Assembly: GCA_017676125.1 (NCBI GenBank)
Contig: GCA_017676125.1_4893.1
Reading direction: 5' to 3' (one strand)
DNA: 52,493 nucleotides
DNA from: a phage
In this document: piece after piece, positions 31,675 through 39,499 of the stretch
Numbering within the stretch: position 1 is the first letter of the stretch
Layout of the letters: each line of letters opens with the position of its first letter
The notes under the pieces: model-generated
The model's database searches: none
Seen by the model: only the letters and a program-made list of their open reading frames with translations
What the model was told of the DNA's origin: nothing
Program-made: the position numbers and the translations under genes

Positions 31675-31700
31675 TGTATCTCTCCTCTAAAAGATAACTT

Positions 31701-31729
31701 ATTATACCACATCACTCTCTAGTGGTAAA
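31701..31729 (-). promoter_or_regulatory. sigma70-like promoter (minus strand) TTTACC-N17-TATAAT
   Basis: On minus strand: -35 TTTACC (plus 31724-31729), 17-nt spacer, -10 TATAAT (plus 31701-31706); spacer contains CCAC...GTGG inverted repeat. Confidence 0.6.
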
Positions 31730-31749
31730 GCACTTTTTACGCTTCTGGT

Positions 31750-31780
31750 AAAAATAAAAAGGACCAGCGTTAACTGGTCC
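31750..31780 (-). terminator. rho-independent terminator (minus-strand transcripts; weaker on plus)
   Basis: Stem GGACCAG/CTGGTCC with 6-nt loop (31761-31780); on minus strand followed by TTTTTATTTTT. Confidence 0.7.
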
Positions 31781-32042
31781 TTTTGGCAGGGTGGCGTAAG
31801 GAGATACAAGGCATCGTAACTATGCAACCAGGCAGCGCATATGAGATTGGCCAAAAGACTTACCATTTTAATCCCCGCGACGAGACGAAAGGAGGTGTTA
31901 TCGAGTAGCCAATCACATATGCGTTACTTGCTGTGTGCTCTCACCGCGGAAAGTATAGAGCGTTGCACTTATTACACCGATGGAGTGGCAAAAGCACACA
32001 GCGAGTACAACCTTAGTTGTGGTGTCTTAGCACCTGAGTTAT

Positions 32043-32051
32043 TGTGGATAA
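32043..32051 (-). promoter_or_regulatory. DnaA box (perfect TTATCCACA on minus strand)
   Basis: Plus-strand TGTGGATAA at 32043-32051 is the reverse complement of the E. coli DnaA R-box consensus; sits in the loop of a 13-bp inverted repeat. Confidence 0.4.
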
Positions 32052-32350
32052 CCTGCACCCGACGGGTGTCAAAAAGATACGCCAAAACACCACAACTAAA
32101 ATTGTGACCGCCGTCTACACCAGGCGCCTGGGGTCAAGGTAGCGAGCCAATACCCTTTTCAGCGTCGGAGGAATCGAACCTCACACATCACGGCTTTTAC
32201 CAAATCTCGGTCAGCGAGCAGAATTGAACTGCATTCACTGGACACCCTCACTGTTTCAACACACCAGGCTTAATTGATTGTTGATAAGAAGAGAGATGTA
32301 AGGGTGTCCATTGAATGCACCTCCGTAGAGGTGCGTTCAGATCAGCGCTA

Positions 32351-32818
32351 TTATTCAGCAACTTCTTCGTTGTCGCCTTCGATCGCGCCAGCCAGTTTAG
32401 CAGCTTCAGCTTTAGCAGCTTCTGCTTTCTGGCGAGCTTTTTCAGCTTTCTCTTCAGCTTTGCGAATCTGCTCAGCAGCTTTCGCTTCGGCTTTTTCAGC
32501 TTTGATGCGAGCACGCTCTTCAGCTTTACGCTGTTTTTCAGCGGCTTTAGCAGCATCGCGTTCTGCTTTAGCGGTATCAACACGCTTAGCCAGAACTTTA
32601 CCAGTGGCTTTACGCCAGTAGGTCAGCTGGGAAGAAACAGTACCACGGGACATTTCGGTAGTGGCAACAACTTCGTCCATAACGTCAGAGCTGGACTTGC
32701 CTTCTTCATGGGCTTTATCAGCCAGGTCCCATACATAACGTGCACCAGTACCAGCTGCCGGATACAGTACGCCGTTAACTTCTTCTTTACCAGTTACAAA
32801 AGTCAGTTTCTCGCTCAT
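32351..32818 (-). CDS. histone H1-like / Lys-Ala-Glu-rich DNA-binding protein (putative)
   Basis: ATG at 32818 with GAGG RBS (track ORF extends to 32878); C-terminal ~75 aa is low-complexity AKAE/KAAEK repeats like histone H1 tails. Confidence 0.5.
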   Translation of the reverse strand: MSEKLTFVTGKEEVNGVLYPAAGTGARYVWDLADKAHEEGKSSSDVMDEVVATTEMSRGTVSSQLTYWRKATGKVLAKRVDTAKAERDAAKAAEKQRKAEERARIKAEKAEAKAAEQIRKAEEKAEKARQKAEAAKAEAAKLAGAIEGDNEEVAE

Positions 32819-32924
32819 AATTTTTTCCTCGTCTACAGGGCTTAATGTTTGTTCGTTACGTGAGTTAATATACGTCATTTAAAAGAGTGTGTAAACACCT
32901 TTTTTAAACTTTTTTCATTAGTGT

Positions 32925-33152
32925 CTAGAAAGGCACATCATAGTCAAAAAGTTTACATCCGGAAGACAGGACTGCCGGCGGTGGTGTTTTGCCTCCGGAT
33001 AATAGACAACCTCCTGCCTGAAAACTACGGCAGTTCGCACAGCTCATATCCTGCAGGTATATAATAAGCTGCCGGCGAACATGCCGCGGTAAAGCTTTAG
33101 CCTGGGTTGCTACCCGTTCAAATAGTTCTCTGTCATCGAGCGCCATAGCCAT
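32925..33152 (-). CDS. hypothetical small Cys-rich protein
   Basis: 75 aa ORF overlapping helicase stop by 20 nt; Cys pairs (CANC, GGC). Confidence 0.35.
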   Translation of the reverse strand: MAMALDDRELFERVATQAKALPRHVRRQLIIYLQDMSCANCRSFQAGGCLLSGGKTPPPAVLSSGCKLFDYDVPF

Positions 33153-34803
33153 TTCCCCAGTCGTAGTTCATGATTTGTGGGTAGGGTCGTTTAATCCATA
33201 CCTTGATGCGCTTAGGAATAGCCAGCTCACCCTTACGGCGAATAAACTCATCGCATGTTTCAGGCGGTTCTGTTCCTGCAGCATTACGCCACCAGGCATC
33301 TGCCATTTGCTTAGCATTGCCATGGGCCTCTATATTTACCCATGTTGTATACACTTCCAGGTTTGAGTAGTACACAACCTTTATACTGTCAGGCCGTCCC
33401 TGCTTCTGGAATAAAGAATAGTTTACCAGCGTAACATCTTTATCCACAACACGAAGCTGACCGTTAGTCATTACCTCTTCTTCTGATGAAGTGAAGGCAA
33501 TGGCAGGTCCGTTAACTGTAAACTCAAATTCATGTCCGCACATCGGATATACACCATTCTCGTCTGGCGTACTTCCTTTAGCCGGATGCTTACATGTACG
33601 GGCTGCATAGCCACTTACCTGGTGACAGATAGGGCACTCTTTACCGCCAGGTGTTTTCTCTGACCGTTTCTTTTTCTTCTTACCAAGACGAGGCGGAACA
33701 GCCGGGTCGTCAATAGGTCCAAGGTCAATGGTGTTAGATGTAAAGTCCATAACAAGACAGTCATGCTTGCCAGGCGCTGTACGTAATCCTCGACCAAGTA
33801 TCTGCACCCACAAGGCAACAGACGTGGACGGGCGCAAGATGCCGAGCATATCAATCTCAGGATAGTCAAATCCTGTCGTCAATACGTTTACGTTTACACA
33901 GACCCGTGCTCGTCCGCTTGTAAACTCTTCCAGTGCGGCTTCACGTTCTTTCTTTGTAAGACCGCCATGCACAACTACAGTCTGCCACCCTCGCAGATTA
34001 AATTCGTCTGCTATGTTGTGGGCGTGCTCAACACTTGTGGCAAATACAAGAACGTGGTTCCTGTCTTTACCGTAGTGCATCATCTCACGAATAGCCGCGA
34101 CTGTTATACTATGTTGGTTGGCTACCTTCTCAAGCTCTGACGGGATGTAGTCACCCATCCTTTCGCCAACATTACTGGTGTCAATCTTGGTTAACACTTT
34201 CTTGTTGACCAGGCGCGACAGGAAGCCTTCATTTACCAGTCGGGTGAATGCGTCAGGTGTTGTAAGGTCATAGCAGATGTCGGTAAATATACCACAGTCC
34301 AGCAAGTGACCACCTGCCAAGCGATACGGAGTTGCTGTGAGTCCTGTTACCTTTACCTTAGGATTAAGCTCTTTGAAGTGAGCAATAACCTTACGGTATG
34401 TTGTTTCAGACTTCTCAGGAACAAGATGGGCTTCGTCAATGAATATAAGATTGAACTTGCCTGCTTCTTCCAGGTTCTTAATGATTGACTGTACCGATGC
34501 TACAACGATACGACCTGAAAAGTCTTTGTGTCCTGCTCCTGAAGAGTAGATAGATACTGGGGCTTGTGGCCAGTGGCGTACAATCGCTTTGGCGTCTTGT
34601 TCTACCAGCTCCTTGACGTGTGTCAGTATAAGAATGCGCTGACGGGGATAGCTGGTAAGAATATCCTTCATCAGCATACCAAGCACAGGTGATTTACCTG
34701 AACCTGTCGGCATGACAATAAGTGGATTACCACTATAAGAATTGAAGTACGACCACCAGGCTGTGACCGCTTCTTGTTGATACCAGCGAGCTTCAAAAGC
34801 CAT
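33133..34803 (-). CDS. superfamily II DNA helicase (DEAH-box)
   Basis: 556 aa; Walker A PTGSGKS, motif II FIDEAH, TATP, motif VI QILGRGLR; C-terminal Cys cluster (CPICH...C...C) zinc ribbon. Confidence 0.85.
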   Translation of the reverse strand: MAFEARWYQQEAVTAWWSYFNSYSGNPLIVMPTGSGKSPVLGMLMKDILTSYPRQRILILTHVKELVEQDAKAIVRHWPQAPVSIYSSGAGHKDFSGRIVVASVQSIIKNLEEAGKFNLIFIDEAHLVPEKSETTYRKVIAHFKELNPKVKVTGLTATPYRLAGGHLLDCGIFTDICYDLTTPDAFTRLVNEGFLSRLVNKKVLTKIDTSNVGERMGDYIPSELEKVANQHSITVAAIREMMHYGKDRNHVLVFATSVEHAHNIADEFNLRGWQTVVVHGGLTKKEREAALEEFTSGRARVCVNVNVLTTGFDYPEIDMLGILRPSTSVALWVQILGRGLRTAPGKHDCLVMDFTSNTIDLGPIDDPAVPPRLGKKKKKRSEKTPGGKECPICHQVSGYAARTCKHPAKGSTPDENGVYPMCGHEFEFTVNGPAIAFTSSEEEVMTNGQLRVVDKDVTLVNYSLFQKQGRPDSIKVVYYSNLEVYTTWVNIEAHGNAKQMADAWWRNAAGTEPPETCDEFIRRKGELAIPKRIKVWIKRPYPQIMNYDWGNGYGAR

Positions 34804-36270: not shown

Positions 36271-36816
36271 TTATTCTTCCCAAGGAGCTGCTGCACCGTC
36301 GTCAGCACCAGGTGCCGTTGCAGTAGCACTCGCCTTCGTTGAAGTACCCGCACCTGCACCTACTTTCTTCGTCGTCGATGCAGTTGCTTGAGAATGACCA
36401 CCTACTGCAGTAGTTGCTTCAGTTGACGCCTTGTATTCGCGAATATCGTTCTGCGGATCGTATTCACCGGTCTTGTCGATACGAACACCAACTTTACCAG
36501 CTACAATACGGTTTTCCAGTAAGTCGGTAGAAGTCAGTTCAACAATACCCAGCGCACGACACAACGCAGACAGTTTGCGATGACCGATTTCAACAGCTTG
36601 TGCATTAGGGTTGGAGTAGGTAATCATGTCAAATACAACACGGTTAGCGAACTCACCTTCCTGCACTTTCAGACGCAGGGACAGGTAAGAACCAGTGCCT
36701 GCTTTAGTCGGCTTCAGCTCAACCTCTTCAATCATGAAGTTGTACCAGCCTTTCGGGATTGGGTCAAAAGACTGTTGCGGTTCGACGGTAGAGCTGTTGA
36801 AGTTTAATTCAGCCAT
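36271..36816 (-). CDS. putative ssDNA-binding protein (DUF669-like)
   Basis: 181 aa; N-terminal OB-like domain, disordered Ala/Gly/Thr-rich acidic C-terminal tail; adjacent to Sak4-like ATPase. Confidence 0.45.
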   Translation of the reverse strand: MAELNFNSSTVEPQQSFDPIPKGWYNFMIEEVELKPTKAGTGSYLSLRLKVQEGEFANRVVFDMITYSNPNAQAVEIGHRKLSALCRALGIVELTSTDLLENRIVAGKVGVRIDKTGEYDPQNDIREYKASTEATTAVGGHSQATASTTKKVGAGAGTSTKASATATAPGADDGAAAPWEE

Positions 36817-38593: not shown

Positions 38594-39499
38594 TTACAGC
38601 AGTTCTGCTTTCAATGCAGCGATGCCATCGAGCAGTGCTTTGATGTCCGGGTTAGATGCCGCCAGGTCAGCAACAACTGTCTGACGACGACGTTCCAGTT
38701 CTTTCTCAACTTCCAGGTCGAGGCGTGCTGACGCTTCACGCAGTAAGTCTTCAACCTGCTGACGACGCTGATACTTGTTAAAGTCAGGCACGTCAACCAG
38801 CCATTTGAGAGTTGCAGTGTTGTAACCAGAAGTATTGGCGGCGCTTACAGACACAACATCAACGAGCTTGGTACCGTTCAGCTCCGGATAGTTAACATTG
38901 CGAACGTCAACAACCGCTTTGTCACCTACACTTACTTTGCCGATGTACTTGTAAGTGTACACACGACCATTCGGTTCAAACTTAACACCAACAAACTTCA
39001 GTTTGTCGTCTGCAATAACCTCTTCCTCAACTTTGAAGTTGATTGCAGTGTTCTTGACAGGTGCGGCCGCTTTGAGCTTAGCGACCATGTACTGTTCGGA
39101 ATGAGACGGACGGCACAGACGGAAGACGTCTTCATTGTAGGTCAGCCAGTTACCGGTCTCATCCACGCATGCAATCTGATTAGTGCCATCCAGTGAACGA
39201 ACACCCGGGCGATTCTTCTCAACACGATACAGCTTACCTTCTTTCAGGTTAGTGTAAGAACGACGGGCGACACCCCAATTATGTTTTTCAGATTCGTACT
39301 TAGCGAAACGGTCAACGCTGAAGTTCTGCTTCAGACCACGGTCGTCGATTACCCATAAGTTATCGTAAGCCCCGCCGAAAGAACCCAGGTTGGCATACAC
39401 TTTGCCCTGCGTCAACAGGGAAGTGTTTCCCTCGTCAACACAGATAACAAAACCCAGAGCTTCGTGTGCTTTACCGCTGCGGTCAAATACTGTAGTCAT
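38594..39499 (-). CDS. hypothetical protein
   Basis: 301 aa ORF, coiled-coil C-terminus; no motif recognised. Confidence 0.5.
   Translation of the reverse strand: MTTVFDRSGKAHEALGFVICVDEGNTSLLTQGKVYANLGSFGGAYDNLWVIDDRGLKQNFSVDRFAKYESEKHNWGVARRSYTNLKEGKLYRVEKNRPGVRSLDGTNQIACVDETGNWLTYNEDVFRLCRPSHSEQYMVAKLKAAAPVKNTAINFKVEEEVIADDKLKFVGVKFEPNGRVYTYKYIGKVSVGDKAVVDVRNVNYPELNGTKLVDVVSVSAANTSGYNTATLKWLVDVPDFNKYQRRQQVEDLLREASARLDLEVEKELERRRQTVVADLAASNPDIKALLDGIAALKAELL

Follow-up and report, generated by a model that had tools for sequence, protein, structure and literature searches.

A gene of 155 codons on the minus strand of a phage genome (GenBank assembly GCA_017676125.1, contig GCA_017676125.1_4893.1; 52,493 nucleotides, the whole of which is called here the window) was identified as the orthologue of gp59 of phage BP63. 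As judged from sequence comparisons, the N-terminal domain of its product defines an uncurated and uncharacterised protein family that is found only in phages. The product, which the initial annotation of this DNA had described as a histone H1-like protein, consists of a small globular domain, a long helix of mixed charge and an acidic C-terminal tip. It may be an abundant nucleic acid-binding protein of the replication/recombination module, made early or in the middle of infection and probably acting on double-stranded DNA with little sequence specificity; we favour this reading, and hold it tentatively.

Megablast with positions 31,700–33,200 of the window matched 60 phage records, the best being Salmonella phage 8-19 (99.7% identity), and nearly all of the matches with a genus label were Rosemountvirus or Loughboroughvirus myophages of about 52–54 kb. 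Since the window measures 52.5 kb, it was taken as an essentially complete BP63-like (Rosemountvirus) genome, and the phage is one of Salmonella/E. coli. The record of Listeria phage 220426122051 (PP583539.1, listed host Listeria monocytogenes) shares 98.9% identity with the Rosemountvirus region of the window, and its host label looks doubtful. The counterparts of gp59 are annotated as "hypothetical protein" in all the records inspected.

The open reading frame (ORF) occupies exactly positions 32,351–32,818, as initially annotated, and lies on the minus strand, the initial annotation having given none. A longer version of 175 amino acids would start at an in-frame ATG at 32,878; since this codon falls within the predicted sigma-70 promoter (32,895–32,867), the start at 32,818 was preferred. 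The homologues start at MSEKLTF, in support of the 155-residue gene model. Comparison with four relatives showed 47–55 substitutions at the third codon position and 12–22 at positions 1 and 2, an excess which indicates that the minus-strand frame is the coding one; gp59 is a real gene. A plus-strand ORF of 176 amino acids (32,315–32,845), rich in Ser, Phe and Leu and exceeding the longest ORF of the sense strand by one residue, was rejected as a gene and considered a shadow cast by the run of GCT/AAA/GAA codons in gp59. Automatic annotators could miscall this ORF in place of gp59.

A phmmer search with residues 1–85 returned 15 representatives, and profile searches added about 100 further proteins. 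They share a domain with the motif NGVxRPxxG(T/S)xxGxVWxIADxxS...(G)xN..T..TQYxxWRKFxGL, which for the globular domain of gp59 was listed as NGVxxP...G(T/S)...W(D)xAD...(T/S)Q(Y/L)xxWRKxxG. In three alignments P20 was invariant throughout, W68 invariant or nearly so and W30 nearly invariant, and R69/K70 were nearly invariant in some. The related-locus search was run with the subfamily alignment A5 as query, the broad alignment A4 lacking a conserved stretch of 7–10 columns. A protein of 2036 amino acids with CARDB repeats (P0006; E = 1e-13) was rejected as a summed chance match and kept out of the alignments: its match covers only residues 14–52, in eight repeats, each at about E = 0.01. At least seven PHROGs (28664, 18634, 11298, 21588, 7864, 17772 and 22313), all of unknown function, are connected by the domain; gp59 itself belongs to phrog_28664, which it matches over its full length (E = 6.4e-99, residues 1–155 of 155). 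Since none of the seven has an assigned function, PHROG membership says nothing on mechanism. By tblastn, the domain was located in 133 phage genomes, including those of Queuovirinae (Greed, slur01, VpKK5), Iggyvirus, PaMx25-like phages and Kleczkowskavirus, and its consensus gave no match in 72,556 plasmids. When 185,579 species genomes were scanned with a pattern, only four matches appeared, all of them on contigs of metagenome-assembled genomes.

The family occurs in several architectures. The domain may stand alone, follow a K/A/E helix (Queuovirinae and many metagenomic members), be flanked by such helices on both sides (Pseudomonas phage Iggy), precede one (the gp59 subfamily) or be present as two tandem copies with KAE linkers. 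True H1-tail-type AKKP/AKP arms were found in P0017, P0041 and 15 of the 74 IMG/VR members. A metagenomic MuF-ADP-ribosyltransferase polyvalent protein of 1363 amino acids (P0011) contains two gp59-type domains, the second followed by a K/A/E helix; the same protein also carries two HExxH-type segments (HELGH and HEAGH). The family domain is usually basic (pI 8–10, median net charge +3), and an acidic tip, taken as a net charge of −2 or lower in the last ten residues, is present in 47 of 68 IMG/VR family members.

The AlphaFold2 model of the first 85 residues, obtained with an alignment of 23 sequences, had a predicted local distance difference test score (pLDDT) of 80.7 and a predicted template modelling score of 0.69. 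Besides the hairpin and the three helices listed in Table 1, it contained single-residue bridges at positions 42 and 77. The single-sequence model of the full protein (pLDDT 77) showed two short strands, two helices and one unbroken helix at residues 58–153, the latter at pLDDT 78–85. Foldseek against the PDB gave no match below E = 0.3 and none that was significant, the top ones being TbiB1, the Rok DNA-binding domain (rank 5, E = 1.3) and homeodomains. No related solved structure was recovered from the PDB sequences by phmmer and hmmsearch; the matches to FliF, an aminotransferase and the kinetoplastid mitoribosomal protein mL42 all had E > 0.1 and were treated as chance. Because the assignment relies on the AlphaFold2 elements and on non-significant Foldseek matches, the domain is placed with modest confidence in a predicted variant winged-helix/trihelical helix-turn-helix (HTH) class. 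An N-terminal domain of about 90 residues had been proposed, together with a structure prediction as a check of it; a domain is indeed present, but measures about 75 residues, and the prediction gave a winged-HTH-like fold class but no significant counterpart in the PDB. The basic junction that adjoins helix 3 is almost the same in close relatives.

The low-complexity Lys/Ala/Glu tail, initially put at about 75 residues, is real, but comprises about 68 residues plus an acidic tip of 12. Residues 76–143 contain 21 Lys/Arg, 14 Asp/Glu and 24 Ala, with no Pro or Gly (Ala, Lys, Arg, Glu and Asp together 87%), and are poor in hydrophobic residues. The suggested likeness to the tails of eukaryotic H1 was not borne out, the segment being of mixed charge, free of Pro and not polycationic. 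Over the whole protein 30 Lys/Arg are balanced by 30 Asp/Glu (net charge 0, pI 6.7), and the acidic tip is present in all eight close relatives. Ala and apolar residues have a weak heptad periodicity (z about 2 in the window, and between roughly 1.5 and 2.7 in seven of eight relatives), and the score for Glu-to-Lys/Arg pairs spaced i to i+4, of the type seen in single alpha-helices, was 10.5 as against 8.0 ± 1.9 in shuffled sequences, 12% of which reached 10.5. Since the heptad stripe is weak and the i to i+4 enrichment not significant, the tail could either dimerise as a weak coiled coil or stand as one stable single helix.

The coding DNA had initially been regarded as a GC-rich imperfect repeat. 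The GC content (0.49–0.50) is above that of the flanks (0.41–0.44), but the repeat was overstated: the sole one reported by Tandem Repeats Finder is a 15-nt unit present 2.2 times at 32,396–32,428 (KAEAA KAEAA), and the remaining "repeat families" are matches of 62–89% arising from reused GCT, AAA and GAA codons. The tail core could be aligned in seven relatives with zero indels, and therefore the repeat number is constant; the comparison of repeat numbers that had been suggested among relatives shows no variation. A true tandem DNA repeat with copy-number variation was rejected on these grounds.

With Sharp–Li E. coli weights, entered by hand, the codon adaptation index (CAI) of gp59 was 0.754, the highest in the genome, as compared with 0.706 for the major capsid protein, 0.566 for the single-stranded DNA-binding protein (SSB) and a genome median of 0.325. 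Both halves of the gene are codon-optimised (0.735 and 0.771), with Leu encoded by CTG in 6/6 cases, Lys by AAA in 18/20 and Ala by GCT in 22/33. The homologues of ZCSE2 (0.75), fHy-Eco03 (0.71) and Erwinia phage RF1 (0.67) likewise stand far above their neighbouring genes, and the distant gp59-type homologue of Seuratvirus Greed has a CAI of 0.54 against 0.20–0.38 for the genes around it. The BP63 annotation carries a promoter at the position homologous to that of the gp59 promoter. UP elements raise promoter strength, and on this ground the A-tracts next to the −35 hexamer of gp59 may boost its transcription. The gene is apparently very highly expressed. The next most codon-optimised genes after gp59 and the capsid gene are those of the SSB (DUF669-type, CAI 0.57) and of the 301-residue hypothetical protein BP63 gp68 (CAI 0.54), probably another abundant protein.

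The gene order Cas4-type nuclease, superfamily 2 (SF2) helicase, small ORF(s) and gp59-type gene is kept across distant phage groups. Among 76 IMG/VR loci, the helicase gene lies upstream on the same strand in 68 of 70, and genes for QueE, QueC, QueD, FolE or DpdA follow directly 3' of the gp59-type gene in 60 of 62, with a median distance of 211 nt to QueE. In most relatives the gp59-type gene thus stands at the start of the 7-deazaguanine DNA-modification operon formed by these genes. In the annotated genomes examined, BP63-type phages were without Que/DpdA genes, and in the window the place where relatives have them, directly 3' of gp59, holds about 480 nt without credible ORFs. When positions 31,860–32,350 were compared with five related loci (L012, L013, L015, L016 and L017), Rosemountvirus non-coding DNA with tRNA debris was seen in place of the 7-deazaguanine genes. 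The comparison of sequences suggests that the Rosemountviruses lost or replaced a 7-deazaguanine modification cassette.

The proposed role in nucleic acid binding draws on the predicted fold class, the basic domain of most relatives, the AKP arms of some, the tandem-domain versions, the presence of the domain in an injected MuF polyvalent protein, the replication-module context and the extreme codon bias. In the mechanism that we infer, the variant winged-helix domain would contact DNA through the conserved S/T-Q...W-R-K residues of helix 3 and through the basic junction next to it (YWRKATGKVLAKR, +5). The 68-residue Ala/Lys/Glu helix would self-associate as a weak coiled coil, so that two DNA-binding heads could bridge or coat DNA, or would serve as a rigid arm, and the acidic tip might fold back onto the basic surface or recruit partner proteins, as in HMGB proteins and SSBs. 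A phage nucleoid-associated protein, as the initial annotation had it, is plausible by the same evidence from the basic domains, AKP arms, MuF protein, replication module and codon bias.

Several points weigh against such a role. In the gp59 subfamily the domain, its basic junction excepted, has a slightly acidic character (pI 5.7) and the protein as a whole is neutral, which is unusual for a non-specific DNA coater; H-NS is likewise acidic. The coiled-coil signal (z about 2) makes oligomerisation uncertain. The CAI is an indirect proxy for abundance, computed here with a hand-entered weight table, and the shared synteny may stem from the common inheritance of a single replication module instead of functional coupling. 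In the literature on Rosemountvirus, fHy-Eco03, phage nucleoid-associated proteins and Queuovirinae no characterisation of any member of the family was found.

A winged-HTH-like fold, with the long helix for dimerisation, would also suit a sequence-specific transcription regulator, which on reading an operator would activate or repress middle or late genes, or else the operon downstream. The phage relies on host-type promoters throughout and needs temporal control, the position of gp59-type genes at the operon head agrees with this role, and several records label homologues as "putative transcriptional activator". These labels, however, look composition-driven ("FtrA", "plectin", "TolA"), a codon adaptation exceeding that of the capsid protein is atypical of a regulator, and the AKP-type arms, the tandem domains and the injected polyvalent protein fit general binding better, so that a regulator appears unlikely. 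The acidity of the gp59 domain and the order of its elements, beta-strands and then three helices as in the RRE, would be accommodated by a protein that binds no nucleic acid at all, that is, a protein- or peptide-binding adaptor with an RRE/PqqD-like clamp, or an abundant inhibitor of a host factor, with the helix as spacer or decoy. High expression would suit a stoichiometric inhibitor. Such a protein is rather improbable, given that the context of ribosomally synthesised and post-translationally modified peptides (RiPPs) is absent, that most family domains are basic, some with AKP arms, and that PADLOC returned no matches.

Winged helices can bind RNA as well, and an RNA-binding protein or RNA chaperone, acting for instance on phage transcripts or co-transcribed tRNAs, would be in line with the two tRNA genes directly 3' in Erwinia phage SOI901, with the tRNA-like remnants and hairpins kept in the window and with the label "sRNA-binding protein" of one JGI homologue. 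We consider it quite improbable: the JGI label is probably derived from K/A/E composition, most relatives have Que/DpdA genes downstream and not RNAs, and neither Pfam nor NCBIfam scans showed a likeness to RNA chaperones such as ProQ/FinO or Hfq. As to a structural, internal or scaffold-like coiled-coil protein of the virion, the record of fHy-Eco03 (MW602648.1) flags the homologue Gp60 as particle-associated by liquid chromatography–tandem mass spectrometry, the charged helical composition resembles that of scaffolding proteins, and MuF polyvalent proteins, which are believed to be packaged, contain a related domain. In the same particle proteome, however, 48 of 81 proteins were flagged, among them helicase, primase, ThyA and exonuclease, and the homologue ORF48 is absent from the S144 virion proteome of 32 proteins, which comprises ThyA, dihydrofolate reductase and endolysin and so includes contaminants. 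Since only one of the two published proteomes contains the homologue, and that one is unspecific, packaging of gp59 into the virion, one of the fates initially envisaged, is unsupported. The gene lies moreover in the replication module, on the strand opposite to the morphogenesis genes, and a scaffold gene already adjoins the capsid gene; a virion role is thus highly improbable. In MW602648.1 the helicase, exonuclease, pyrophosphohydrolase and thymidylate synthase are labelled "putative structural protein", which may spread as misannotation.

Beyond binding as such, the family could represent a phage-specific class of abundant "chromatin" proteins, in which a variant winged helix is joined to an arm of K/A/E or K/A/P type and to an acidic tip. 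They would coat or organise replicating phage DNA and might present it to DpdA, or else protect it from host nucleases as long as it is unmodified, and the Rosemountviruses would have kept gp59 after loss of the operon. This extension is speculative and we regard it as doubtful. If gp59 does act as an architectural DNA-binding protein, many virulent phages, among them Rosemountvirus, Loughboroughvirus, Queuovirinae, Iggyvirus and Kleczkowskavirus as well as numerous uncultured relatives, would encode an abundant protein of this kind that is unnamed in the databases. Questions would follow on the organisation of phage genomes while they replicate, on their protection against host nucleases and defence systems, and on whether such a protein cooperates with 7-deazaguanine modification of DNA. 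The family offers a testable annotation for at least seven PHROGs of unknown function, and gp59, being small (17 kDa) and probably well expressed, should be simple to purify and assay. Should gp59 bind no nucleic acid, the gene with the strongest codon optimisation in these candidates for phage therapy would be left without an assigned function.

Table 1. Positions of gp59, its protein segments, its expression signals and other features in the window.
Feature	Position	Strand	Description or basis
Coding sequence, BP63 gp59 orthologue, phrog_28664	32351..32818	minus	155 aa; stop codon 32351-32353; start ATG at 32818
Globular domain, residues 10-75	32594..32791	minus	beta-hairpin 11-20, helix 1 25-39, helix 2 43-53, helix 3 58-72 (predicted)
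Basic junction, residues 66-80	32579..32623	minus	TYWRKATGKVLAKRV; net +5, zero acidic residues; charge count
Ala/Lys/Glu/Arg helix, residues 76-143	32390..32593	minus	net +7, no Pro, no Gly
Acidic C-terminal tip, residues 144-155	32354..32389	minus	GAIEGDNEEVAE; net -5; charge count
Shine-Dalgarno sequence GAGGA	32826..32830	minus	7 nt 5' of ATG; read from sequence
Sigma-70-type promoter (predicted)	32867..32895	minus	TTTACA - 17 nt - TATATT; consensus scan, 10/12 matches
Two A6 tracts resembling an UP element	32896..32916	minus	AAAAAAGTTTAAAAAAGGTG; adjoin the -35 hexamer upstream; read from sequence
Stem-loop	32312..32339	minus	12 nt 3' of stop codon; GCACCUC-UACG-GAGGUGC core; RNA fold
tRNA-like remnant in spacer	32140-32240 (L006, 2083-2243)	minus	alignment to tRNA-Pro(TGG) of Erwinia phage SOI901
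Long hairpin	32006-32105	minus	about 13-bp near-perfect stem (TTAGTTGTGGTGT...ACACCACAACTAA); kept in ZCSE2
First downstream canonical intrinsic terminator	31757..31784	minus	12-bp stem, then T-run; terminator scan
Small Cys-containing protein, phrog_23504	32925-33152	minus	75 aa; unknown function; overlaps helicase gene 3' end
SSB (DUF669-type)	36271-36816	minus	
BP63 gp68, hypothetical protein	38594-39499	minus	301 aa

The structured non-coding region that had been noticed 3' of gp59 contains the UACG-loop stem-loop, the tRNA-like remnant and the long hairpin. The stem-loop has a folding energy of −17.8 kcal/mol (z = −3.2), and its stem is kept in ZCSE2 and fHy-Eco03, there with a UUCG loop; no U-run follows it, and by the terminator scan it is not a canonical terminator. 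The hairpin of the terminator at 31,757..31,784 is kept in relatives, and judging from these signals the transcript from 32,895 likely ends there. ARAGORN and Rfam reported no tRNA genes in the spacer, only the remnant similarity being seen. In the remnant, the T-arm looks intact (GAGGTTCGATTCCTC) and a TTTGG stretch resembles an anticodon loop; Erwinia phage SOI901 has real tRNA-Pro and tRNA-Gln genes at the spacer position. A match of the long hairpin to a microRNA precursor (23 bits, far below gathering) was spurious. Upstream of gp59, the 75-residue protein shows a Cys pattern of C..C followed by more C residues, and a small helicase-adjacent ORF is likewise annotated in Loughboroughvirus, SOI901, VpKK5 and RHEph04.

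For comparison with known systems, gp59 was scanned against Pfam at E ≤ 10, NCBIfam at E ≤ 0.1 and PADLOC, and 20 family members against Pfam at E ≤ 1. Pfam gave no match of gp59 to Linker_histone, HC2, HU, H-NS or KfrA_N (PF11740), and NCBIfam none to HU/IHF or H-NS. Matches of gp59 or its family to ATP-synt_B, TolA, PspA and the adenylate kinase PRK13808 in these scans were rejected as composition-driven. The authors of the fHy-Eco03 study reported no HHpred match for Gp60. HNH_repeat (PF18780) was matched by 3 of the 20 family members, with a best E of 0.0011, and by gp59 itself not at all; the sole recorded score, that of P0016, is 16.9 bits, below the gathering score of 26 bits, and a distant relationship of the family to HNH_repeat, as opposed to membership, is possible on these profile matches.

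Like the linker histones H1/H5 (PF00538), gp59 has a small globular domain, here of predicted winged-helix type, and after it a long tail of low complexity containing Lys and Ala, and some members of the family, but not gp59, also have genuine AKP/AKKP stretches. The tail of H1/H5 is disordered, strongly basic, rich in Lys, Ala and Pro and near acid-free, whereas that of gp59 is predicted to form one uninterrupted helix; it has 14 acidic residues, no Pro and an acidic tip, in a protein of net charge 0. Its beta-hairpin is N-terminal to the helices and not a C-terminal wing, and its globular domain did not match the PF00538 winged-helix profile. The description as histone H1-like does not hold as kinship or as chemistry, given the lack of PF00538, HC2, HU and H-NS matches and of a related structure in these searches, and the amphoteric, Pro-free tail. 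Features of the bacterial H1-like proteins (chlamydial Hc1/Hc2, AlgP-type KPAA repeats) were likewise not seen in gp59, which gave no PF07382 match and has no AKP/KPAA arrays; the distant relative P0017 alone gives a sub-threshold HC2 match (21.6 bits against a cut-off of 40).

KfrA of IncP plasmids has an N-terminal DNA-binding domain (PF11740) and a long alanine-rich coiled-coil tail. gp59 shares with it an N-terminal HTH-type domain followed by an Ala/Glu/Lys/Arg-rich helix, and a gene placed beside mobile-element replication functions, but its tail is much shorter, PF11740 matched neither gp59 nor any of the 20 family members at the thresholds used, and no homologues were found in the plasmid set. 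RRE/PqqD peptide-recognition domains are a winged-helix variant with N-terminal strands; gp59 has only two such strands, both short, its structural matches are non-significant, its neighbours include no RiPP biosynthesis genes, and the family domain is basic with nucleic acid-type arms.

The closest parallels lie in the arrangement of parts. In common with H-NS, Rok, MvaT and Lsr2, gp59 has a helical, possibly self-associating segment and a small DNA-binding-type domain with a basic linker between them, a high abundance as suggested by codon usage and an overall charge that need not be basic. It differs from them in the reversed domain order, the lack of sequence similarity, the weak coiled-coil signal and the restriction of the family to phages, and the Rok DNA-binding domain, although among the Foldseek matches, was a non-significant one. 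HMGB proteins and SSBs have acidic C-terminal tails, and the layout of a DNA-binding module followed by an acidic tip would be shared by gp59, in whose family the tip is kept as a feature and not as a sequence; their folds (HMG box and OB fold) are unrelated to that of gp59. The resemblance of gp59 to H1, HMGB and H-NS/Rok is one of layout, by analogy and not by homology.

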